64,000 nucleotides of DNA from Nitrospirota bacterium. GTDB taxonomy: Bacteria; Nitrospirota; UBA9217. The position numbers were made by a program, and so were the translations under genes. Below the pieces are notes generated by a model. That model ran no database searches and had not been told where the DNA came from. It saw nothing but the letters and a program-made list of their open reading frames with translations. This document shows, one piece after another, positions 1 through 52,433 of the stretch. Each line of letters begins with the position of its first letter. Within the stretch, counting starts at the first letter, position 1. The stretch is taken from positions 192,001 to 256,000 of the forward strand of contig CAWIYV010000011.1 of NCBI GenBank assembly GCA_963840455.1. Direction: 5' to 3'.

Positions 1-175
1 CGCCGATGGGCAGGAACGCGTCCACTGACGGCGGCCGCTGGACAAAAGGATGGCCGGGGGCCTCGAAGTGCAGCACGAACTGGGCGAACTGCCAGCCGAC
101 AAATAGCGTAACGAGCAGGAACCAGGCCTGGACAGCGTATCGGACAAAGCGGATGGAATTCCGGGGATAGGACAT
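1..175 (-). CDS. 4Fe-4S binding membrane protein (NapH/MauN-like polyferredoxin), N-terminal part only, runs off the window
   Basis: Manual translation from ATG 175: MSYPRNSIRFVRYAVQAWFLLVTLFVGWQFAQF...RPPSVDAFLPIG, a TM helix plus the RPPxVxAFLPI motif typical of this family. Confidence 0.65.
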   Translation of the reverse strand, partial: MSYPRNSIRFVRYAVQAWFLLVTLFVGWQFAQFVLHFEAPGHPFVQRPPSVDAFLPIG

Positions 176-232
176 GAAATGATTATAGCATCATGCCCGG
201 CCGGGGTTTTATGATTATTATCATATCAAGGC

Positions 233-484
233 TTATGCGGACTGCCGCTTCCTGATCGCGGCCTCAAGCTGCTCAGTGGTGATATCGCATCCCTCGAACA
301 CCACAGTACCGTCGATCTCGATGGCGGGGAACTTCGGCAGCGACACCCGCTGCAGCAGGCCGAAGGACGTCTTCTTGACGACCTCAATGTCAAAGGCATA
401 TTTCTTCTTCAGCTCCGTGACCACGGAGGTTATGTTGTTTCACCATTTCCCCTGCGGGTCGTTGAAATAGAGCTTGATCAGCAT
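233..484 (-). CDS. Small thioredoxin-like selenoprotein with NDPxGxxU motif (TsoC-like), 83 aa, UGA at 440-442 read as Sec
   Basis: RBS GGAAAGGAG before ATG 484; MLIKLYFNDPQGKW-UGA-NNITSVVTEL continues in frame into ORF 233..424; SECIS-like hairpin 413-428; UGA aligns with the paralog at 4136-4405. Confidence 0.85.
413..428 (-). promoter_or_regulatory. Bacterial SECIS-like hairpin
   Basis: CTCCGT-GGTC-ACGGAG, starting 11 nt after the UGA, loop begins with G. Confidence 0.75.
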
Positions 485-518
485 ACAGGTGCTCCTTTCC
501 TGTGACGATCGTCATATG

Positions 519-638
519 ATGAATTCAGGAGCGAGCGCATTCCCCGTGGCTTGCTGCGGGGTTAGCGGGCGCTTAGAATAAGTTATTGCCACCTTGAGGA
601 TCGAAGATTCCCTGCAGCTTGCTGCAGGGAGCTTCAAT
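519..638 (-). repeat. ~120-bp double-hairpin dispersed repeat, copy 1
   Basis: Matches consensus ATTGAAGCTCCCTGCAGCAAGCTGCAGGGAATCTTCGATCCTCAAGG...TATTCTAATCGCTCGCTAACCCCGCAGCAAGCTACGGGGAATGCGCTCGCTCCTGGATTCAAT. Confidence 0.95.
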
Positions 639-642
639 AGCC

Positions 643-1833
643 TCACGGTAAATTGCTCATCCCGTTCCTCATCTTCCAGAGGAAATACCGTTCGAACGAA
701 AGCTTCAGCCACTTCGCCCAAACTGCCTTCTTCGTGTATGAACTCTGCCGTGGAGGCAGGACCGGATAGGCCTTCATCAGAGCGGCGGTGTTCCCCATGT
801 CCATCAGGCAGACGACCCCGAGCTCGTCCGCAAGCGGCGGCGTCTTGCCCGTTATATCCGACGCAATGGTCGCAGCAGCCGTCTTCGCCATCTTCACGGT
901 CATGAAACCTGTTTTCGGCACACCCGTGGGCACCGGAGTCACTTCGGGCGGAGCGATCGCAATCGCAACACCTATGGCAAAGATGTTCCTGTGCTTGGTG
1001 TGGCGATAGTTCTTGTCCACCGGGATGAAGCCCCGCGGATTGCCCAGCGGCGCGACAGCGGGAACGCCCTTGAAGGGAGGCGCGATCATGGCGAGCTTGA
1101 AGGGGATCTTCGTACCGTCTTTTAATTTGATCTCGCCCGGCGTGACTTCCTCGATGGCCCGGCTGACGATCGGCTTGATATCACGCTCGGCAAATTCGTG
1201 TTCCATAAAAGTTTTTGAGGCCCCGAGTCCACCCACGCCCATATGGCCGAGATACGGTTCGGAAGTGAGATAGATGATCGGCACCTTGTGGCGCATCTTC
1301 CTGCGCCGAAGCTCCGCATCCATCTCGAATGCAAGCTCGTAGGACGGGCCGAAGCAGCTCACCATCTGCGATGATCCGAGGACGATCGGGCCGGGATTCT
1401 CAAGAACGCTCCGCCAGGTCGCGCCGGTCTTTACCGCATGATCGAGCGTGAAGGTGCAGGCCGTGTATCCTTTGTCCGGCCCGAGGCCGGGGATCTCATC
1501 AAAAGCAAGATGCGGCCCCGTCGATATGACGAGATGATCATAGGGAATCTCTTTGCCTTGAGCTGTGATGACCTTCGATTTATCAGCATCGATCTGCTTA
1601 GCGCCATCATGAACAAACTCGATCCCCTTCCGCCTCAGGATGTCACTCACTTTGATCGAAATGTCCTCCGGCTTTCGCCAGCCCATGATCAGCCACGGCA
1701 AGGACGGCAGGAACACGAACCGCTCATCGTCGCTCACCACGGTCACGTCCGCTTTCCCGCCAAGCAGTCGCTTCAGTTCCAGGGCCGCGGTCAGCCCTCC
1801 GAACGATCCGCCTAAAACAACGATCTTTGGCAT
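643..1833 (-). CDS. sqr: Sulfide:quinone oxidoreductase-like FAD-dependent oxidoreductase
   Basis: GGSFGG Rossmann motif; catalytic Cys pair in SCFGPSYE and VVCLMD; PKTG motif; amphipathic C-terminus. Confidence 0.8.
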   Translation of the reverse strand: MPKIVVLGGSFGGLTAALELKRLLGGKADVTVVSDDERFVFLPSLPWLIMGWRKPEDISIKVSDILRRKGIEFVHDGAKQIDADKSKVITAQGKEIPYDHLVISTGPHLAFDEIPGLGPDKGYTACTFTLDHAVKTGATWRSVLENPGPIVLGSSQMVSCFGPSYELAFEMDAELRRRKMRHKVPIIYLTSEPYLGHMGVGGLGASKTFMEHEFAERDIKPIVSRAIEEVTPGEIKLKDGTKIPFKLAMIAPPFKGVPAVAPLGNPRGFIPVDKNYRHTKHRNIFAIGVAIAIAPPEVTPVPTGVPKTGFMTVKMAKTAAATIASDITGKTPPLADELGVVCLMDMGNTAALMKAYPVLPPRQSSYTKKAVWAKWLKLSFERYFLWKMRNGMSNLP

Positions 1834-1886
1834 ACTATCCTCCCCAGGATTTTATTGCTTCGCGCACCCTATCTCCTGCCGGCAGT

Positions 1887-2168
1887 CTAAAACATGCCTG
1901 TTACTTTCTCGCCGCTCGTTATAATGTCAGTCAGTTTGTCGTAGTCGATGACTTTGACCCGTTCATCCAGCTCGGAATCCTTGAGCCCCCGGAGCTTCTT
2001 GTCGTCATCCAGCACATACACCGCGCCGGGAAAAGACCCGAGTCGCTCCTTTTGTGCGAACAAGACCCCGTTTTGCAGCAGGACCAGATCGGCCCGGCCT
2101 TCTTGCGCAAGGGTCAGGCCGAGCGCTCCATCGTTCGTATCCGGTGCGCTTTTTACGATCACCAGCAT
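1887..2168 (-). CDS. dsrH: DsrH/TusB family sulfur relay protein
   Basis: 93 aa, LLQNGV and VLDDDKKLRGL motifs, third gene of a dsrEFH-like triad. Confidence 0.8.
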   Translation of the reverse strand: MLVIVKSAPDTNDGALGLTLAQEGRADLVLLQNGVLFAQKERLGSFPGAVYVLDDDKKLRGLKDSELDERVKVIDYDKLTDIITSGEKVTGMF

Positions 2169-2178
2169 GGTCGTCTCC

Positions 2179-2532
2179 TTAAAATATCATGGTAGTATCT
2201 GTTTTACCGATAATATCGGCGATCTCCGCGCCATTGGCAATGGTGACCCCCTCGATTATACGATCATTATCGAGCTGCTCCCTCTTTAATGACGCTTCAT
2301 CGGCATAGACCGCGACACCCATGTCAATGCAATCCTGAATGCCGTCTCCTGCATTCAAATATTCCGTCTGGGATGCGTCCTGTCCCTTTCTTGCCGCATG
2401 CACCCCACCGCCGACAAGCAGCAGCTTTACCTCCATGTCGTCGGTCACCCCTCCGAGCGCATGGCGGAGCGCCTCCGAGGCATCGACCGTCCCGTAGGGA
2501 GGCCTTCTTAAAATTATGCTTATGCTTCCCAT
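2179..2532 (-). CDS. dsrF: DsrF/TusC family protein
   Basis: RRPPYGT...EALR and GGGV motifs of the DsrE/F fold; lies between dsrE and dsrH. Confidence 0.8.
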   Translation of the reverse strand: MGSISIILRRPPYGTVDASEALRHALGGVTDDMEVKLLLVGGGVHAARKGQDASQTEYLNAGDGIQDCIDMGVAVYADEASLKREQLDNDRIIEGVTIANGAEIADIIGKTDTTMIF

Positions 2533-2542
2533 GGTAGCCCCC

Positions 2543-2887
2543 TTATATGCCGAAATTTAGAAACACGGGTTTTGACTTCACAACATTGAAGAGCCCCTTC
2601 AACGAGCTCATCTCGCCGCCCTCAATGGAATCGTCAGCCGCAAGACCGCGGCTTTTCATGCACCCTGTTCAGATATCCACCTTGAGGCCTTTACCCACAA
2701 GGTCTACCAGCGTGGAGAGCGCCTGCGGGACCTGTCCCTTCACAATAGAAAAAACGCCGTCGCCCGAAGCAATAAGTCTTGCCCGGTGCCCCTTCTTCAG
2801 AGCAGCTTCCGCCAGCTTGAAAATCGTGTGCGTGTTCTCAAAGCTGTAGGGAGTCGTGGAAAGGAACATCACAATCTCTTTTTGCAT
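2543..2887 (-). CDS. dsrE: DsrE/TusD family selenoprotein, 114 aa, UGA at 2669-2671 at the catalytic Cys position (UxxC)
   Basis: ...GLKVDI-UGA-TGCMKSRGL...FLNFGI-TAA completes a normal-length DsrE; SECIS-like hairpin 2636-2653. Confidence 0.88.
2636..2653 (-). promoter_or_regulatory. Bacterial SECIS-like hairpin
   Basis: AGCCGC-GGTCTT-GCGGCT, 15 nt after the UGA. Confidence 0.75.
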
Positions 2888-2942
2888 GTCTGCCTCCTTT
2901 TTTTGATTGGGAAAGTGCCGTTTCAGGAACGTTCACAAAATA

Positions 2943-4095
2943 TCAGTTCCGGACACCAAGCAGTATCTGCTCGTGATAAATCGGATAAGCGATCGGATCG
3001 ACATTGTTGTAGCCGATCTTTTTCCGCCGTGCTTCATCCAGAAGATGATATTGCACGGTCACATCCACAACTGCGGGAGTGTCGCTGCCACGCTCGCTCA
3101 CGGAAAACCTGAAATCTCTCGGCTGCCCGTACGGCAGCCGCGTGTCCCGGAGGTCGACAATGAACGGCCTCCACAGGATGTACCGCTTCATGGTGTACAC
3201 TTTCTCAGCCAGTACCTGCCCGCTCGATCCGAGGAGCCGAAGCTCCAGGGTAAGATGCCGGTCCGGTGTGCCGGTCGGCAGATAGTGAGCCGCTCCCACG
3301 TTCGTAAGGGTGACGACCAGCCTGTCGCCCTCCAACCGATGGTCTACCCGGAGCGACTCCTTCACGCGCTCCGGTTCATGTCCGCCGTGGAACAGATGCC
3401 GTCGCCCTTTCCGGGATGGCATCCCCTCGGCGGCCGGACGCACGACGGCGGGCATGTGGCAGGAAACGCAGTCTATCGTCTGACTGCCCTCTTCTATTTC
3501 CGCTACGGTGCCGCAGGGCGGAATAGTATAGAACGTATCCCACCGTTTTCCCGCTACCACATGGCACCTCTGGCACGGTTTGATCCCCTGCGACATCCCG
3601 GGATCGTACTCTACAGGATGAGGCGCCCTGACCGTTGGGAACGGACCGACGATCCTGCCATTCCGGATGTGGCACACCGCGCACGTTACGCCCTCGTCCC
3701 GCAGCGCTGCTGTCGTAGTCCGGATTCGGTGCGAGGATGGGGTCGAATTTATCCCGGTCCCTGAAGCCAAGGACGAGATTCTGTTGCTGGTTCACCAGCG
3801 GCGTGTGGCAGTTGAGGCAGATCTGCTGGGAACCATCATAGAGGAAATCAACCTGGAAGTAGGGCTCGGTCCACGCCAGGGCGTGCATGCTGCCGGCCCA
3901 CTCGCGATAGATCGCCTCATGACATTTCCCGCATTCCTTCGCCTTTACTGAGGCGATGCCGGGAACCGTCCCGATGTGCATCGGCCGCTCGAACCGTTCA
4001 TCGACCACGAAGATGTTCATCGGCCGCAGGAACCGCCAGAGCAGGAACAGGACAACCAACACCACAAGGCTTATCCACAACGCTTTCCTTGTCAT
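2943..4095 (-). CDS. Membrane-anchored pentaheme c-type cytochrome (c554-like) with an apparent 1-base frameshift near 3711
   Basis: N-terminal TM helix (MTRKALWISLVVLVVLFLLW); CGKCH and CLNCH in one frame, CAVCH, CQRCH and CVSCH in the next; removing one base joins ...NPDYD to AALRDEGVTCAVCH. Confidence 0.8.
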
Positions 4096-4135
4096 CGACC
4101 GCTTAGACCTTCGCTCCGCCGGATCAGCGCATCTG

Positions 4136-4405
4136 TCACGCGCCTCCCGTTGATGTGCCGGCCAGGGCCGCCCGCAGCAGCTCAACGTCGGCCACGCCGT
4201 CCCGTACAATGAACTTCCCGTCCACCATCACCGACGGGCAGGGGGGTGGATCCTTCTCCGCGGCGTATTCCGATGAAGTCTTCTTGATGGTCCTGATCTC
4301 GGCGCCGAACTCCTGCGCCGCCCGCCGGGCGGCGTCCTGGTTCGCCAATCATCGTTTCCCCATGGGATCGTTCGCGAACAAGGTGATCGTATGCTTCTGC
4401 ATCAT
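4136..4405 (-). CDS. Small thioredoxin-like selenoprotein with NDPxGxxU motif (TsoC-like), 89 aa, UGA at 4349-4351
   Basis: ATG overlaps the arsR stop (ATGA); MMQKHTITLFANDPMGKR-UGA-LANQDAA...PPPCPSVMVDG; SECIS-like hairpin 4316-4334. Confidence 0.88.
4316..4334 (-). promoter_or_regulatory. Bacterial SECIS-like hairpin
   Basis: CGCCGCCC-GGC-GGGCGGCG, 14 nt after the UGA. Confidence 0.78.
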
Positions 4406-4743
4406 CGTCTCCTCTCTCCGGGATAGGTTCCTTTTTTCGTCACCGGACAGCACGCCGGCGCGGGGATATCCTCTTCATATTCCTTTTTCATCAGTTGCAG
4501 CAGGTCAGGGATGAGGGGTTCCTTGAGGAAATAACACTTGAGCCGGCCGTCAACGAAGAAATCAACGATTTGATGCGAACGCAGCAGCTTGAGGTGCTGC
4601 GACACGTTCGGCTGGCTGATGTCGAGGGAATCCTCGAAGTCGCTCACGCACTTGACTCCCTGCACGAGCTCTTCAAGTATCTTGATCCTGACCGGGTGGG
4701 CAAGTATCTTTAAAAGCTCTATCCTTTTGTCCGTCGAAAGCAT
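4402..4743 (-). CDS. ArsR/SmtB family transcriptional regulator
   Basis: LKILAHPVRIKIL...SQPNVSQHLKLLR HTH signature; several Cys (KCV, KCY, ACCP). Confidence 0.92.
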   Translation of the reverse strand: MLSTDKRIELLKILAHPVRIKILEELVQGVKCVSDFEDSLDISQPNVSQHLKLLRSHQIVDFFVDGRLKCYFLKEPLIPDLLQLMKKEYEEDIPAPACCPVTKKGTYPGERRR

Positions 4744-4771
4744 AAGCGCAAACCTCCGATAAGATATATGC

Positions 4772-4802
4772 AAACATTATTATGTTTTTATGAAATTGTC
4801 AA
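4772..4802 (-). promoter_or_regulatory. Sigma70-type promoter of the arsR operon with an overlapping palindrome (putative ArsR operator)
   Basis: TTGACA-N17-TAATGT on the minus strand; AAACAT-N4-ATGTTT at 4772-4787. Confidence 0.6.
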
Positions 4803-4819
4803 TAAATATTCCGCGTGGA

Positions 4820-4855
4820 TTGAAGCCCCCTGCAGCAAGCAGCAGGGAGCTTCAA
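4820..4855. repeat. Single-hairpin short form of the dispersed repeat, copy 2
   Basis: TTGAAGCCCCCTGCAGCAAGCAGCAGGGAGCTTCAA. Confidence 0.85.
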
Positions 4856-5082
4856 CTCTGTGTTCTCTATGGTAAATGATGTCAAGGATACTGTGCTCTC
4901 CTTGGTAAAACGTCCCCGCCAAAGATGTATCCGGGTGGATCCGTGTCTCAATGCTCTTTTCGGGCTTAATGGATGCAGCGGCGCATCGCTGCCATCCAGC
5001 CCGGTCATGCGGCTTCTCGATCTCACGGGCGGAGCAGCGGGATTGTTGAAACAGGAAGCGGTGCGGGAAAATGGCGGTGGGC

Positions 5083-5856
5083 TTAGCGGGGCGGGCCTTC
5101 GGGAGTGCCGGCGGAAAAGCTCTCCTGGATGTATGTCTTAATGAGGGCGAGGTCTACCGGTTCGATGCTCATGAACTTCATGCCCATGCCGGGGTCCTTG
5201 GCGGAATCTTCGCCAAAGCCATACGCGTACAGGACCATCGCCTCGACCCAGATGATCTTCTTCTTAAGGCTGAAGCTGACCGTTTGCTTCGACCCCAGGG
5301 GCCCGGGATGCAGTGTCTTGACGAACATGCCCTGCTCCGAGATAACGGTCACGAACTCTGCGCCGGTCCCGGTGCCGTTGACCGAAGCTTTCAGGTACGT
5401 GGAGACACGCACGTTCTTCCGCGGTGTCCGCTCGAGGATCGACTGGACAGCGCGGTACAGGTCCTCGCCTGTCACCGGTTTTCTGAGATAGAGGAAGCAG
5501 CCGGCTTGCAGGCACCGGTCCCTGCCCGACGGATCAGCATGGGAGGTCTGGACCACTACGGGGACCTTGGAGACCACGGGGTCCCGGCGCATGCGGTCCA
5601 TCAGGACTATGCCGTTCATTCCCGGCAGGATGAATTCCGTGATGACCAGTGAGGGCACGGCGATCGACAGGAACTCGAGCGCTTCCTCTGCGGACTTCAC
5701 GGTCGTTACGCTGTACCCGAAGTTCTGGAGGATCATCGAGGTCGTGAGCGCATCCTTGGGATTGCCGTCCACGACCATGACGAACTTCTTCTTTTTCTGC
5801 CCTGTTTCCGTCACGTCCGCAGGCTCTCCCATCGATGATGCCGTTCCTTTCCGCAT
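5083..5856 (-). CDS. Pseudo-receiver + PilZ domain protein
   Basis: REC-like N-terminus with E at the phospho-Asp position (LVITE); RKNVR and VISEQG; GMGMKF. Confidence 0.8.
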   Translation of the reverse strand: MRKGTASSMGEPADVTETGQKKKKFVMVVDGNPKDALTTSMILQNFGYSVTTVKSAEEALEFLSIAVPSLVITEFILPGMNGIVLMDRMRRDPVVSKVPVVVQTSHADPSGRDRCLQAGCFLYLRKPVTGEDLYRAVQSILERTPRKNVRVSTYLKASVNGTGTGAEFVTVISEQGMFVKTLHPGPLGSKQTVSFSLKKKIIWVEAMVLYAYGFGEDSAKDPGMGMKFMSIEPVDLALIKTYIQESFSAGTPEGPPR

Positions 5857-5944: not shown

Positions 5945-7588
5945 TTATTCGATCCTCACCCGGTCCCCTTCCCGGACGCCCGATCCCGCGGCCGTCTCGA
6001 TCACCCAGCGCACCGGTCCCTGGGAAGGGTAGAGGTCGCGCTGGTTGGGGCGGCAGTCGCGGTAGACCCGCGAAACAATCATCGCCGGATCGACAAAGAT
6101 GATGTCGATGGGAAAGGCGACGCTCCCCATCCAGAAGGTCACCTCCACGGGCGCTGGATAGGGAAAGAGCGCTGCCTCGTCCTTCGCAAGCTGCCGGAAT
6201 CCCTGCAGCCCCCGGCGCTGGCTCTCCCCGGTATCGCACAGCAGCACCACCCGGAACGAGCGCGCCCTGCCGGACGGCCCCGCGGGGGTGACGGTCACGG
6301 TCATTTCCTTCGTCTTCTGCGCGGTCTGCAACGCATCAGCGCCCTTCGCGATCTTCACCTCGACTGCCAGCACCAGGATGCCGGCGGCGATCGTGATGAC
6401 GGTGATCAGGGCTCCGACGCGGAAATATTCCATGAACCCGATCTCGATCCGCTTCCTCGCCTGCTGGGCGACAATAAGGTTCGCCACGGACCCGATGAGG
6501 GTGAAGTTGCCGGCCAGCGTGCTGCTCATGGCGAGCGCCAGCCACGCGACCCGGTCGCCGCCCAGGGACTCGATGAACGGCTTCAGCAGCATCACTGCCG
6601 GGACGTTGCTTACAATGTTTGAAAGGAGGGCCGACAGGAGGGACAGGCCCGCGATCCTGCCCGCCGGAGGATAGGACGACAGGTCGCCCGCCTGCCCGAT
6701 CATTAAGCCGGCGAGACCGGAGACCTCGACGCCGTGCATCACGACGAACAGGCCCGAAAAGAACAGCAGGAGCGTCCAGTCGACCCCCTCGAGGACCCGC
6801 TCCGTGCGGATCCCGCCGATGAGCATCAGGAGCACCGCCCCCGCCGCAGCGGTCAGCGAATAGGGATAGCCGAGGGAGAACGCCGCCAGCACACCGGCGC
6901 AGACGGCGAGCGACTTTGCCAGCAGCGGGCCGTTCACCTCTACGGCGGGCATGATCGGGTTACGCGTGAACGGACGCCCATTCAGGTCCTTCCGGTACAC
7001 GACCCGTATCACGGCGATGCTCACCAGGAACCCGATTATCGTGACCGGGACAAGCGCGCCGAAAAAGGACAGGTAGGGGATCCCGGAGTGGATGCCGATC
7101 AGCATGTTCTGCGGATTGCCGGTGATGGTCATGACGCTGCCGATGTTCGATGCCGTGGCGAGCGCCAGGAGGTAGGGCATGGGGCGGACGCCGAGCTGCG
7201 CTGTCACTTCCAGGATGACCGGCGTGTACAGCAGGCAGATGGTATCGTTCACGAACAGGGCGGAGAGGATGCCCGACGACAGGGTCACGAGCGTCACGAG
7301 CTGGAGCGGGGTCCTGGAGAGCGAAAGGATCCGGCCTGCCATGAGTTCGAAGAAACCGGCCACCCGGAGGTAGACCGTGATGATCATCATCCCGAGCAGC
7401 AGCAGGAGCGTGTGCAGGTCGACGGCCGCAAAGGCCTCGTCGAGCGTGAGCACGCCCGTTACGACCATGAGCACGGCGCCCACCAGCGCTCCGGCGGGCC
7501 GGTCGATGTGCACGCGCGGGATCTGGCGCAAGCCGATGAAAAGATAGGTGATGAGGAAGATGACGAGCGCGGTGATCACGGGGGGCAC
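5945..7588 (-). CDS. ArsB/NhaD/CitMHS-type anion transporter fused to a C-terminal DUF192 domain
   Basis: SALFVNDT, SNIGSVMTITGNPQN and SNVPA motifs; C-terminal RRGLQG...FWMGSVAFPIDIIF...WVIETAAG. Confidence 0.85.
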   Translation of the reverse strand: MPPVITALVIFLITYLFIGLRQIPRVHIDRPAGALVGAVLMVVTGVLTLDEAFAAVDLHTLLLLLGMMIITVYLRVAGFFELMAGRILSLSRTPLQLVTLVTLSSGILSALFVNDTICLLYTPVILEVTAQLGVRPMPYLLALATASNIGSVMTITGNPQNMLIGIHSGIPYLSFFGALVPVTIIGFLVSIAVIRVVYRKDLNGRPFTRNPIMPAVEVNGPLLAKSLAVCAGVLAAFSLGYPYSLTAAAGAVLLMLIGGIRTERVLEGVDWTLLLFFSGLFVVMHGVEVSGLAGLMIGQAGDLSSYPPAGRIAGLSLLSALLSNIVSNVPAVMLLKPFIESLGGDRVAWLALAMSSTLAGNFTLIGSVANLIVAQQARKRIEIGFMEYFRVGALITVITIAAGILVLAVEVKIAKGADALQTAQKTKEMTVTVTPAGPSGRARSFRVVLLCDTGESQRRGLQGFRQLAKDEAALFPYPAPVEVTFWMGSVAFPIDIIFVDPAMIVSRVYRDCRPNQRDLYPSQGPVRWVIETAAGSGVREGDRVRIE

Positions 7589-7777: not shown

Positions 7778-7893
7778 AAGCTCCCTGCAGCAAGCTGCAG
7801 GGAATCTTCGATCCTCAAGGCAGTACTATTGATTCTAATCGCCCGCGAACCCCGCAGCAAGCTGCGGGGAATGCGCTCGCTCCTGGATTAAAT
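7778..7893 (+). repeat. Double-hairpin dispersed repeat, copy 3
   Basis: Match to consensus. Confidence 0.95.
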
Positions 7894-22233: not shown

Positions 22234-22353
22234 ATTGAAGCCCCCTGCAGCAAGCTGCAGGGGACCTTTGATCCTCAAGGTAGTACTATTTATTCTAATC
22301 GCTCGCTAGCCCCGCAGCAAGCTACGGGGAATGCGCTCGCTCCTGGATTCAAT
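22234..22353 (+). repeat. Double-hairpin dispersed repeat, copy 6 (complete, ATTGAA...TTCAAT ends)
   Basis: Match to consensus. Confidence 0.95.
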
Positions 22354-24096: not shown

Positions 24097-25509
24097 ATGT
24101 TGCGAAAATGCATCAGCCTTTCCCTTGCAACGGTCCTGACATCCGGCATCCTTATCGCCGGCCAGGCCGGAGCGCAGGAAAAGGCCGCAGCACCGGCAGC
24201 TCCGCAGGCGAAGCCCACCGTGGCCAAGGTCTGCGCGAACTGTCACCAGCCGCAGCCCGGGAACCTTCGGGCAAATTTCGACAGCGTAGCCTACAAGACC
24301 AGGTCGATCCAGGTCAAGATCGACGAGGCGACCGAGATCCTGCGGTTCGATGATAAGCTCCAGCTCGTGAACATCCAGGCCCCCGCCGACGCACCGGACC
24401 AGCCGCTCCGGGCGCTCAAGAAGGGCAAGGAGGTCCGGATCGAGTATACCGAGAAGGACGGCAAGAAGTTCATGACCCTTATCTCGGCCAAGCCGCCCAT
24501 CAAGATCGCGCCCGAGAAGATGGTCAAGACCGAGGACGTTGAGAAGCTCGTTGCGCTGGGTCCGGAAAAGGGCAAGTATATGCTTATCGATGCCCGGCCG
24601 CTTCCGCGGTTCCAGGAAGGCTTCATTCCCACGGCGGTGAACATCCCCTTCCCGGCCTTCGAGAAGATGAAGGACAAGCTCCCGGCGGACAAGGCGACGC
24701 TCATCGTCTATTACTGCGCCGGGGTCACCTGAGCGATGAGCCCTGACTCTGCCCGGCGGGCAGAGAACCTTGGTTACACCAATGTGAAGGTCTACCACGA
24801 CGGCGTGCCGGAGTGGGTGAAGCGGAACTATCTCGTACTGTCAACGCAGTTCCTGAAGGATGCATGGATCGAGAAGGACATCCCGCATGTGCTCGTGGAC
24901 GTGCGGCCCGCAGCGGAAGCTGAAAAGGGATTCATCAAGGGCGCGGTCACGGTCCCCGTCGTAGAGATCGAGAAGGCCATCGCCAAGTTCCCGCCCAAGG
25001 ACAAGAAGGCGCCCATCATGATCTACGATCAGAAGGGCGGCGATGACGCGGTCAAGGCGGCGAAGGCGCTCATCACGGCGGGCTATGCGCCGGTGGACAT
25101 CGTATCAGGCGGGTTCGACGGCTGGAAGGCTGCGGGCTTCCCGGTCCAGACGGGCAAGCTCGCGACGAACATCGTGTACGTGCCCAAGCCGCGGCCCGGC
25201 GAGATCTCCATCGAGGACTTCACGAAGATCGCCATGAATACGCCTGCGGACACCCTGATCCTCGATGTACGCAACCGCGACGAGGGCAATGCCGGCATGA
25301 TCAAGGGCGCGAAGCTCGTGCCCGACGAGGAGATCCTCGACCGGTTTGCCGAGGTCCCGAAGGACAAGAAGATCGTGACCCATTGCTCCACAGGCGTGCG
25401 TGCCGAGATGGCCTACCACAAGCTGAAGGAGAAGGGCTACAACGTCCAGTTCCTGAACGCCAAGGTGGAGATCAACGACAAGGGCGAGTTCAAGCTCGAG
25501 AAGCCCTGA
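24097..25509 (+). CDS. Exported monoheme cytochrome c / triple-rhodanese selenoprotein, 470 aa, UGA at 24730-24732
   Basis: Signal peptide, CANCH, YYCAGVT-UGA-AMSPDSA joins two in-frame ORFs; SECIS-like hairpin 24747-24765; third domain has HCSTGVRA. Confidence 0.88.
24747..24765 (+). promoter_or_regulatory. Bacterial SECIS-like hairpin
   Basis: CTCTGCCC-GGC-GGGCAGAG, 14 nt after the UGA. Confidence 0.8.
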
Positions 25510-39276: not shown

Positions 39277-39332
39277 AAAAAAACCGCCAAAGTCTATATC
39301 CAACGGATGTTAGAATACTTGGACTTTGGCGG
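39277..39332 (-). terminator. Intrinsic terminator (riboswitch expression platform)
   Basis: CCGCCAAAGTC...GACTTTGGCGG followed by T7; 5' arm overlaps aptamer P1. Confidence 0.8.
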
Positions 39333-39433
39333 CCCGACTGGCGTATAAACCGGAACCTCGATGATCTGAAGCGGTTTTCTGTAGCCTCGGTGCTCTGCGT
39401 CCCCGGGTTTCCCCGGGTTTGCTCTGAGCAAAG
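39324..39433 (-). ncRNA. GEMM-I (c-di-GMP-I class) riboswitch, A20 variant
   Basis: CTTTGCTCAGAGCAAACCCGGGGAAACCCGGGGACGCAGAGCACCGAGGCTAC...TACGCCAGTCGGGCCGCCAAAG: P1 CTTTG/CAAAG, GAAA-capped P2, P3. Confidence 0.85.
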
Positions 39434-51815: not shown

Positions 51816-52349
51816 ATGATCGAGGTGCGGGAAGAACAGCAGGAAGATATCGGGGCGGTCCGGAAGGTCAACACGCGCGCCTTTGGCCAGACGGCCGAAG
51901 CGTCCATTGTTGATGCGCTGAGAGAGCACTGCCCCGGCCTTCTTTCGCTGGTGGCGGTGGACAGCGGCCGGATCGTCGGCCACATCCTGTTCAGCCCCGT
52001 TGTGATCGAATGCGAAGGCCGGAACGTTTCCGGCATGGGGCTCGCGCCGATGTCGGTCCTGCCTGAATGCCAACGCCGGGGTATCGGCTCCGCGCTGGTC
52101 AACACAGGCATCGACATGCTCAGGGAACGCCGATGCCCCTTTGTGATCGTGCTCGGCCATTCCGGCTACTACCCCCGCTTCGGGTTTGAACGCGCTTCGC
52201 ACTATGCCATCCGCAGCCAGTGGGAAGGGATCCCCGATGAGGCCTTCATGGTCCTGATGCTCGACAGAACGGCGATGCAGAACATTTCCGGCGTCGCCCG
52301 CTACCGGGCCGAGTTCAATATCCCTGAAGCAAGCTGCAGGGAATCCTAG
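51816..52349 (+). CDS. GNAT family N-acetyltransferase (YhbS-like)
   Basis: GHILFS, LAPMSV.P..QRRGIG, VLGH..YYPRFGF. Confidence 0.92.
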   Translation: MIEVREEQQEDIGAVRKVNTRAFGQTAEASIVDALREHCPGLLSLVAVDSGRIVGHILFSPVVIECEGRNVSGMGLAPMSVLPECQRRGIGSALVNTGIDMLRERRCPFVIVLGHSGYYPRFGFERASHYAIRSQWEGIPDEAFMVLMLDRTAMQNISGVARYRAEFNIPEASCRES

Positions 52350-52433
52350 ATCCTCAAGGTGGAACTAATGTATTCTAATCGCTCGCTAACCCCGCAGCAA
52401 GCTACGGGGAATGCGCGCGCTCCTGGATTCAAT
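52321..52433 (+). repeat. Double-hairpin dispersed repeat, copy 11, overlapping the GNAT gene 3' end
   Basis: Match to consensus; supplies PEASCRES and the stop codon. Confidence 0.9.

Follow-up and report, generated by a model that had tools for sequence, protein, structure and literature searches.

Sulfide-stress operons bring together a sulfide:quinone oxidoreductase (SQR) and sulfurtransferases under a thiol-based repressor, as represented by the cst operon of Staphylococcus aureus and by the BigR and SqrR systems. In Synechocystis, the SuoR-SuoS system is described (PMC4307280) as a type I SQR that is governed, along with an arsenite transporter, by an ArsR-like repressor. The so-called type II form of DsrEFH, according to the accessible text of PMC13293266, includes a cysteine (Cys) protein, marked by Cys67, that adjoins tusA and yeeE/yedE and acts as a sulfur transferase alongside reductive DsrAB. 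Furthermore, a 2026 review (PMC13188914) lists, in its available sections, the selenoproteins TsoA, TsoB and TsoC (GxxU motif) and a DsrE-like selenoprotein (UxxC motif), and describes the Tso operon, crediting the definition of this 'three selenoprotein operon' to Haft & Tolstoy 2025. The present study concerns a nine-gene operon in a 64,000-nucleotide stretch of a Nitrospirota bacterium genome (C11:192001-256000, hereafter the window, whose positions serve as coordinates throughout), which is headed by an ArsR-family repressor and encodes a DsrEFH trio, an SQR and three predicted selenoproteins. The operon is real and is conserved with three predicted selenocysteine (Sec) codons. It is best read, with about even confidence, as a Sec-dependent relay for sulfane sulfur that is inducible and receives its sulfur from SQR. 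Its component families are already known: TsoC, the DsrE-like selenoprotein and type I SQR are catalogued parts. An earlier note on this DNA had not recognised the gene combination as a described system, which does not apply to the TsoC and DsrE-like (UxxC) selenoprotein families but does agree with a literature search on the whole operon (DsrE, selenocysteine, SQR, ArsR, Thermodesulfovibrionia), in which no paper describing it was found. In the literature that could be searched, neither the assembly of the operon nor its type of regulator is covered, and the same holds for the connection with SelD seen in relatives.

The nine genes are co-oriented, and the open reading frame (ORF) map of the window confirms the order and orientation previously claimed for them (lengths in amino acids, aa):

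4402-4743, minus strand: arsR, ArsR/SmtB-family repressor, 113 aa (PF01022, E 2.2e-11; NF033788, 71.8 bits)
4136-4405, minus strand: TsoC-like 1, predicted thioredoxin-fold selenoprotein, 89 aa (39.9 bits on NF045708, short of its cut-off of 45; motif NDPMGKR-U)
2943-4095, minus strand: gene for a membrane-anchored pentahaem cytochrome c, five CxxCH motifs, with a +1 frameshift near 3708-3712
2543-2887, minus strand: DsrE-like subunit, 114 aa (PF02635, E 1.6e-12; predicted Sec in VDI-U-TGC)
2179-2532, minus strand: DsrF/TusC-like subunit, 117 aa (PF02635, E 3.7e-14; TIGR03010, 34.9 bits, below the cut-off)
1887-2168, minus strand: DsrH/TusB-like subunit, 93 aa (PF04077, E 2.2e-10; TIGR03011, 41.1 bits, cut-off 49.2)
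643-1833, minus strand: SQR, 396 aa (3hyv, E 3.9e-99; 3sy4, E 5.6e-95; Pyr_redox_2)
233-484, minus strand: TsoC2, predicted selenoprotein, 83 aa (78 bits on NF045708, exceeding its cut-off of 45; motif NDPQGKW-U)
1-175, minus strand: napH-like polyferredoxin membrane protein, first 58 codons (remainder at L003:7171-8175, before the window)

All nine genes had been located previously, although the last of them is cut by the window edge; the DNA before the window provides a full napH-like protein of 334 aa, beyond which lies an unrelated 6-phosphogluconolactonase-like gene. A single transcription unit is the simplest reading, as the intergenic gaps are short (10-57 nt throughout, save for a 158-nt gap with a repeat between sqr and tsoC2), the arsR stop overlaps the start of tsoC-like 1 (ATGA), and no terminator-like site was found on the minus strand in positions 1-5200. 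The ArsR-family repressor is the first gene of this unit, as had been proposed.

Three in-frame TGA codons shorten the standard ORF calls in this operon, each of them followed after 14-18 nt by a hairpin that resembles a selenocysteine insertion sequence (SECIS) and whose loop starts with GG:

4349-4351, minus strand: in-frame TGA of tsoC-like 1
4318-4332, minus strand: SECIS-like hairpin of tsoC-like 1 (stem GCCGCC / GGCGGC; the loop opens with GG)
2669-2671, minus strand: in-frame TGA of dsrE
2636-2653, minus strand: SECIS-like hairpin of dsrE (AGCCGC-GGUCUU-GCGGCU)
440-442, minus strand: in-frame TGA of tsoC2
413-428, minus strand: SECIS-like hairpin of tsoC2 (CUCCGU-GGUC-ACGGAG)

All three UGAs are predicted to behave as real Sec codons, since the frames are kept past the TGA, Cys occupies the same column in relatives, the hairpins are conserved, and selA, selB, selD and tRNA-Sec are present in the genome. 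The products of selA (606.9 bits), selB (383.5 bits) and selD (359.8 bits) all score above the curated cut-offs, as does tRNA-Sec (66.5 bits; anticodon tca according to ARAGORN), so that each of selA, selB, selC and selD, the lack of which the earlier note had named as a reason to abandon the Sec interpretation, was found. The selD gene itself carries one TGA. In a phylum sample of 401 genomes, the TsoC model matched 71 genomes at E ≤ 0.001, 21 of these above the cut-off, while the read-through DsrE matched 193 at E ≤ 1e-5; nearly all of the listed full-length TsoC and DsrE matches contain exactly one TGA. Both the TGA column and the downstream frame are kept in 35/35 fetched DsrE loci, as well as in 20 TsoC1-type and 21 TsoC2-type rows (two lists that overlap), in each case plus the window. 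At the Sec column of 29 TsoC loci, Cys was found in seven versus TGA in 22, the Cys forms belonging to TsoC-like 1 in L037 and L041 and to TsoC2 in L021, L022 and L026-L028, and stop-less DsrE homologues carry Cys at the corresponding column in 6/6 cases. Cys/UGA homologue pairs, proposed earlier as a check, therefore exist for TsoC as well as for DsrE, and the homologues continue past the UGAs.

The hairpins, likewise first pointed out in that note, are conserved on alignments with compensatory changes. For dsrE, 94.6% of 186 cells were paired, compared to 77.0% in shuffled alignments (0/500 shuffles as high), with changes on both sides in 3/6 pairs; the corresponding values were 100% of 100 cells versus 95.6% (1/500; 1/5 pairs) for tsoC-like 1, and 91.7% of 60 cells versus 83.2% (0/500; 3/6 pairs) for tsoC2. 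Because the aligned sequences are related and lie within coding DNA, the shuffles overstate the case, and slid-register controls, in which pairing fell to 26-60%, together with the compensatory pairs carry more weight as evidence. Taken singly, the sequences of the window give weak fold z-scores (-2.18, -0.44 and -1.05).

The distribution of the operon was assessed by scanning one genome per species with a regulator-only alignment, whereby 322 of the 323 matched stretches encode a relative. Regulator-anchored counts refer to 79 loci kept among the matches listed, of 322 matches; these loci are labelled Nitrospirota or sub-groups thereof (Nitrospirae, Nitrospiraceae, Nitrospiria, Nitrospira, Thermodesulfovibrio as well as its order and class, Candidatus Sulfobium), with one of the 79 labelled Betaproteobacteria. 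Core counts were made on the co-oriented run that follows the regulator, using the 52 loci in which 4.5 kb or more of downstream sequence was present. Such runs include DsrE in 40 loci (all with a TGA), DsrF in 40, DsrH in 41 and Sqr in 37, followed by TsoC1-type proteins (18), DrsE_2 (17), TauE (14), periplasmic Sec-rhodanese (4), cytochrome (3) and TsoC2-type proteins (3). DsrE(U)FH-Sqr on its own is the most frequent architecture (11/52). The core is ArsR-DsrE(Sec)FH-SQR, which is common in Nitrospirota, and the window holds a rare, rich variant of it. The gene neighbourhood is thus conserved elsewhere, a matter on which the earlier note had made its proposal depend.

The three adjacent genes at the centre of this core encode DsrE, DsrE (F) and DsrH folds according to Pfam (PF02635, PF02635 and PF04077), which bears out their naming. 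The predicted Sec aligns with the Cys of the Cys-type paralogue that the genome carries in its dsr cluster. It would occupy the active-site Cys column of the DsrE family, presumably the equivalent of Cys78 in the solved proteins. PDB matches of the DsrE subunit to designed pentatricopeptide repeat (PPR) proteins were set aside as repeat artefacts. The trio resembles both type I DsrEFH (Allochromatium)/TusBCD and type II DsrEFH in that three small subunits of DsrE, DsrE and DsrH fold are clustered, with the reactive residue of DsrE presumably at the same column. It differs from them in having Sec in place of Cys, in TusD/C/B scores that are below the cut-offs, and in its neighbours, which are a repressor and SQR as opposed to dsrAB/dsrC or tusA/yeeE; by Pfam, neither TusA nor YeeE is among the nine genes of the operon. 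The accessible text of PMC13293266 contains no word starting with 'selen' and no 'ArsR'. With the 'DsrE-like protein' selenoprotein family, as listed in the available sections of PMC13188914, the subunit shares PF02635 and the UxxC motif (U-T-G-C in this case), yet here it is part of an E-F-H trio within an ArsR-SQR operon and belongs to a large Nitrospirota branch whose database entries are 72-aa fragments. Indeed, all 120 of the 120 best DsrE relatives in the protein database stop at the TGA, covering the first 63%, and most are annotated as a 72-aa 'DsrE family protein'. These truncated entries fit the remark, found in the available part of PMC11033732, that most Thermodesulfovibrionia 'possess dsrFH, but no dsrE'. 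Three genes of the operon are miscalled by standard pipelines, and this dsrFH-without-dsrE statement has been used to infer the sulfur metabolism of Thermodesulfovibrionia.

The genome also possesses a separate dsr cluster on another contig (L168; C9:409500-420500), consisting of dsrA, dsrB, a dsrN-like gene, dsrC, Cys-type dsrH/dsrE/dsrF-like genes and dsrM. A dissimilatory role could be envisaged on this basis, in which the Sec-type DsrEFH would hand SQR-derived sulfur to DsrC/DsrAB so that energy is gained from sulfur oxidation or disproportionation. The presence of dsrA (562.6 bits) and dsrC (165.6 bits), and of dsrB and dsrM, is in line with such a role, as are the sulfur transferase function of the second DsrEFH type in organisms with reductive DsrAB and the dissimilatory role proposed for it in cable bacteria and sulfate reducers (both from the accessible text of PMC13293266). 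Furthermore, a Sec form of dsrE would explain the above-mentioned report on Thermodesulfovibrionia (PMC11033732, available part). This role is nevertheless considered unlikely: Cys-type DsrH/E/F-like genes already adjoin dsrC, which makes the Sec-type trio an extra set, while the Sec operon is repressor-controlled, is present or absent among close relatives, and was never seen beside dsr, tusA or yeeE in the mapped loci, where no explicit search for tusA or yeeE was made.

The sequence of the SQR agrees with the function assigned to it in the sulfane-sulfur relay. Its closest structural matches, with E values down to ~1e-99, are the solved SQRs of Aquifex and Acidithiobacillus, which we take to be of type I, and both essential Cys residues of these enzymes have their counterparts in the segments VSCFGPSYE and VVCLMDMG; the name Sqr, given in the earlier note, therefore stands. 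A third Cys, presumably the one that links flavin adenine dinucleotide (FAD), is shifted by two residues relative to the solved SQRs. Assignment to the NCBIfam 'type III SQR selenoprotein subtype' (101 bits versus a cut-off of 525) was outweighed by the Aquifex/Acidithiobacillus match. The operon has in common with the sulfide-stress operons of the cst, BigR and SqrR kind a repressor, an SQR and carriers of the rhodanese/DsrE kind, with a TauE-type permease added in relatives. It is set apart from them by the Cys pattern of its regulator, by its Sec carriers, and by the lack of a persulfide dioxygenase, for which no search aimed at pdo was made and which would be expected of an anaerobe. As for SuoR-SuoS, the available description (PMC4307280) has in common with the window an ArsR-like repressor over a type I SQR, but the window operon contains no arsenite transporter, and selenoproteins and DsrEFH are absent from SuoR-SuoS.

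The repressor carries four Cys residues, namely C32 (GVKCVSDF), C70 (RLKCYFL) and the pair C98-C99 within PAPACCPVTKKGTYPG, all of which are kept in 39/39 orthologues. In a second set, the strict three motifs were found in 77/82 sequences, and the CC pair is present in the printed tails of the remaining five. As the earlier note pointed out, some ArsR proteins, those of the SqrR/BigR type, sense persulfide. However, the column of BigR Cys42 and SqrR Cys41 holds a glutamate (Glu) when the regulator is aligned to 3pqj (LMLVCTL) and 6o8k (MIMCYL), and the score on the BigR equivalog NF040642 is 51.9 bits against a cut-off of 155; since the first sensing Cys is replaced, a regulator of the BigR/SqrR type was rejected. 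The score on the TsoR equivalog is likewise low (35.4 bits against 115). No paralogue was found in the genome with the queries used, leaving one regulator of this family. Upstream of arsR, the following element was recognized:

4768-4802, minus strand: arsR promoter/operator; TTGACA serves as the -35 box, and TTTGCAT closes an imperfect, A/T-rich inverted repeat

The inverted repeat is a probable operator of the ArsR-type repressor. The pattern TTGAC...TTTG[CA]AT occurs in 53/82 upstream regions of orthologous regulators and in none of the shuffles, and its 16-nt core is found only once in the 4.03-Mb genome, at arsR. The promoter emerged from the comparison of orthologous upstream regions, having been missed by a simple promoter scan.

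The same Cys residues bear on a possible metalloid response, in which the regulator would bind As(III) or Sb(III) (or Te/Hg) and sulfane sulfur would convert or sequester the metalloid, for example as thioarsenic species. The vicinal CC is invariant and C32 (C-V-S-D) falls where classical ArsR proteins have their CVCDL site, an arrangement that presumably resembles As(III) sites. A distant relationship links TsoC2 to the thioredoxin-like family MTH895/ArsE (23.6 bits on PF13192; 24.2 bits on TIGR00412), and ArsE is named an organoarsenical resistance protein in bioRxiv 10.1101/2022.10.17.512643. In addition, the ArsR-like repressor of Synechocystis controls an arsenite transporter along with a type I SQR (PMC4307280, available part), and Acr3 (465 bits; e.g., L132:448-1542) adjoins the regulator in 5/79 loci, being divergent in four. 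Such a response is judged very unlikely all the same, as the operon is without an ars gene, the Acr3 gene of this genome (C11:610250-611314) lies ~415 kb away, 74/79 loci have no Acr3 nearby, and a recurrent methyltransferase neighbour is not ArsM by its NCBIfam score.

The steps of the SQR-fed sulfane-sulfur relay can be outlined as follows. A thiol-reactive signal would modify the four invariant Cys of the repressor and so bring about its release from the operator. SQR would oxidise sulfide at the membrane and pass the electrons to menaquinone, and the resulting sulfane sulfur would be transferred to the DsrE selenolate, forming a Se-S adduct within the DsrEFH complex. The TsoC proteins would then resolve or pass on the DsrE-bound sulfur, and would probably be held in the right redox state by the NapH-like protein, a quinol-linked iron-sulfur membrane protein, while the TauE-type permeases, the periplasmic Sec-rhodanese and the pentahaem cytochrome may represent optional add-ons in relatives. 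The advantage of Sec over Cys would be a faster, lower-pKa chalcogen exchange. The sulfur-flavoured accessories in relatives (TauE, Sec-rhodanese and the DsrE2-like DrsE_2) count in favour of the relay. The earlier proposal of a selenium-dependent module for handling sulfane sulfur (or selenium or metalloids) is thereby retained as regards the Sec codons, SQR and DsrEFH; the regulator is not of the SqrR/BigR type, and the proposed connection with periplasmic electron transfer is a weak one. Should the mechanism hold, it would be an anaerobe's version of the response to sulfide by SQR plus sulfurtransferases, in which the carrier relies on selenolate and the thiol-rich ArsR sensor is of a new kind.

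Several points weigh against the relay. The TusD, TusC and TusB equivalog scores are 16 versus 89.25, 34.9 versus 94.15 and 41.1 versus 49.2 bits, respectively, and the DsrE subunit matches the DsrE structure 2hy5 only at E 0.48. The regulator is without the Cys pair of BigR and SqrR, the known persulfide-sensing ArsR proteins, and its vicinal CC, combined with a Cys at the ArsR alpha-3 position, presumably resembles As(III) sites. An SQR that feeds the quinol pool and a NapH-like protein that draws quinol for TsoC would together be futile unless sulfur exits the cycle. The 79 regulator-anchored loci and 40 loci fetched earlier share genomes in part, and such kin are not independent. Finally, the same regulator family heads Sec-SelD-TauE modules, some of which are without SQR or DsrE, and this points towards selenium.

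These modules became apparent when the unexplained neighbour proteins of the 79 loci were clustered and scanned with family models. SelD (TIGR00476, 328 bits; e.g., L132:4608-5591) occurs in 25/79 loci, mostly followed by TauE, which itself occurs in 27/79, and some loci consist of bare ArsR-SelD-TauE operons. The regulator-linked SelD paralogue possesses a TGA in its N-terminal loop (SSCAG-U-AAKF) in 19/19 cases with upstream sequence. A role in selenium trafficking is therefore a serious rival to the SQR-fed sulfane-sulfur relay, albeit a rather improbable one: a selenium-sensing regulator would control an operon that is one module of a selenium-use regulon, DsrE(Sec)FH and TsoC would carry Se-Se or S-Se adducts to selenophosphate synthetase, and SQR and the NapH-like protein would supply redox equivalents. 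Each reactive carrier in these operons is a selenoprotein, which agrees with this proposal, as do the weak match of a DsrE-like neighbour in relatives to the selenium protein YedF and the presence of a regulator 61% identical to that of the window beside canonical TsoC genes (L014). The SQR scores 72 bits on the model of an oxidoreductase domain found N-terminal to SelD; this is, however, well below the cut-off of 310, and the enzyme is far nearer to true SQRs (335 bits, both catalytic Cys). Moreover, the queries used did not detect in this genome any SelD-TauE, Sec-rhodanese or DrsE_2 module resembling those of the relatives. The genome has one regulator of the family and one operator, and its only selD is located elsewhere, the ~1.5 kb flanking it on each side being free of ArsR and TauE matches. 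SelD beside several selenoprotein genes can merely serve their synthesis, and the fact that DsrE(U)FH-Sqr alone is the commonest architecture also argues against selenium trafficking.

A broader proposal, which is regarded as doubtful, would make the four-Cys ArsR family a Nitrospirota switch for selenium (chalcogen) that, in the presence of selenium, turns on both uptake and activation through Sec-SelD/TauE and a DsrE(Sec)FH/TsoC/SQR relay carrying Se or S-Se in place of plain sulfur. If true, this would imply that selenium has a delivery pathway of its own and that sulfur-relay proteins are switched between Sec and Cys isoforms. The tie of the regulator family to Sec-SelD and a permease in relatives makes bacterial selenium delivery to SelD testable in one gene set.

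Other recurrent neighbours of the regulator were observed in relatives. A rhodanese with a signal peptide (E 5.4e-21) and a TGA at the position of the active-site Cys (VVI-U-MFDKRS) is encoded in the operons at L073:9074-9523 and L074:8275-8727, and Sec-rhodanese was found in 7/79 loci by a looser whole-locus count. An MMPL-type resistance-nodulation-division (RND) transporter and a LolA-like protein follow SQR or DrsE_2 in 26 loci (e.g., L105:12868-16059), often accompanied by a 473-aa protein without a family match; this pair might export hydrophobic sulfur species. No such pair, and neither SelD nor Acr3, accompanies the regulator in the present genome.

The two small thioredoxin-fold proteins of the SQR-fed relay belong to the TsoC type. 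CPSV is invariant in the alignment of TsoC-like 1, and is presumably located at the cis-Pro loop of the thioredoxin fold. The TsoC2 protein passes NF045708, and the operon further resembles the Tso operon, as described in the available sections of PMC13188914, in the single-Sec GxxU motif on a thioredoxin-like fold, in the adjacent ArsR-type regulator and in the presence of several selenoprotein genes per operon. The motif of the window proteins is NDPxGKxU as opposed to NEPxGxxU in Tso, TsoC-like 1 (39.9 bits) and the regulator (35.4 versus 115 bits for TsoR) are below the cut-offs, and the window operon combines its TsoC proteins with DsrEFH, SQR and a NapH-like protein. No match to TsoA was detected in the genome by a search that rang in no control genome, which makes this weak evidence of absence, and the best genome match to TsoB reaches 80.2 bits against a cut-off of 805. 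The NapH-like protein scores 80.1 bits on TIGR02163 (cut-off 213) and displays by sequence two CxxxCP and two 4Fe-4S motifs, its orthologue possessing Fer4_5 and Fer4 domains. TsoC and NapH-like proteins recur as a pair in L046, L068, L078, L079, L167, L090 and L099.

The pentahaem cytochrome had been regarded as a link to periplasmic electron transfer. Its five CxxCH motifs are indeed encoded in the operon, but in two frames: haems 1 and 2 are in one frame (stop at 3376), while haems 3-5 are in the +1 frame. Relative to relatives, the window has one extra base at DYDSS/A/LRDEGVTCAVCH, a site in GCAGC/GCTGC-like sequence, and the cytochrome is a single intact frame of ~380 aa in four relatives (L068/069, L070, L071 and L077). 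Furthermore, one base fewer was found at 3708-3712 in one bridging contig per run in 4/4 metagenome runs, which represent relatives at ~85-99% identity, no run containing the source strain (at most 0.19 of sampled words). The frameshift is private to this assembly and may be either a mutation or an assembly error, and as assembled the cytochrome is probably inactive. A programmed frameshift was set aside, as no slippery motif was seen at AGC AGC GCT GCG and the relatives are one base shorter. Given this frameshift and a presence in only 3/52 regulator-anchored loci, the cytochrome makes for a weak link to periplasmic electron transfer in this genome. The intact homologue matches the pentahaem cytochrome c552 5ze8 (E 7.5e-11), the source organism of which we take to be Thermochromatium tepidum. 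The likeness consists in the five CxxCH motifs; the match is nevertheless limited to residues 162-297 of the intact homologue, and the window gene is frameshifted.

Comparison to relatives also indicates how the operon was put together. Between tsoC-like 1 and the cytochrome gene, relatives from the same genus encode a 262-aa TauE/SafE permease (PF01925, E 1.6e-42; L069:827-1612 and L070:9596-10381), which is absent from the window operon, where positions 4099-4135 seem to retain merely the last codons of tauE; an identical tauE-less junction was found in one environmental contig. While DsrH, SQR, the cytochrome and ArsR are 75-92% and TsoC-like 1 is 52-78% identical to same-genus copies, the identities of the window's DsrE and DsrF to those of other genera reach 94-98% and 80-88%, respectively, compared to 44% and 47-50% within the genus. 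In comparison with L068, L070 and L071, a cassette seems to have been swapped within the operon at the dsrE-dsrF segment (2179-2887). L167, the closest relative, has sqr-tsoC2-napH directly after a response-regulator gene, the block from arsR to dsrH being missing along with the repeat of the sqr/tsoC2 gap:

519-643, minus strand: ~120-nt dispersed repeat in the sqr/tsoC2 gap, with 46 genome matches at 79-93% identity, not present at this junction in L167

The operon is an accessory, mosaic module rather than the core dsr pathway of the organism, given the separate dsr cluster, the lack of the arsR-dsrH block in L167, and a DsrE and DsrF that belong to another clade than those of the same genus. 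The repeat may mark the recombination joints of this mosaic. Further copies were observed at ~7778-7889, 22234-22351 and 52321-52431, as well as a partial one at ~4815-4860, just upstream of the arsR promoter.

Upstream of arsR, on the minus strand, lie genes for a response regulator with a PilZ domain (5083-5856) and for a permease of the CitMHS/ArsB superfamily fused to DUF192 (5945-7588); these two genes directly precede sqr in L167. Rfam searches at gathering thresholds returned no match within the operon, and the sole match in the window is a c-di-GMP-I riboswitch at 39325-39433 on the minus strand (51.3 bits, above the gathering score). A further candidate selenoprotein is encoded on the plus strand at ~24517-25164, where tandem rhodanese-like matches fall within one 475-aa open frame that contains one in-frame TGA.

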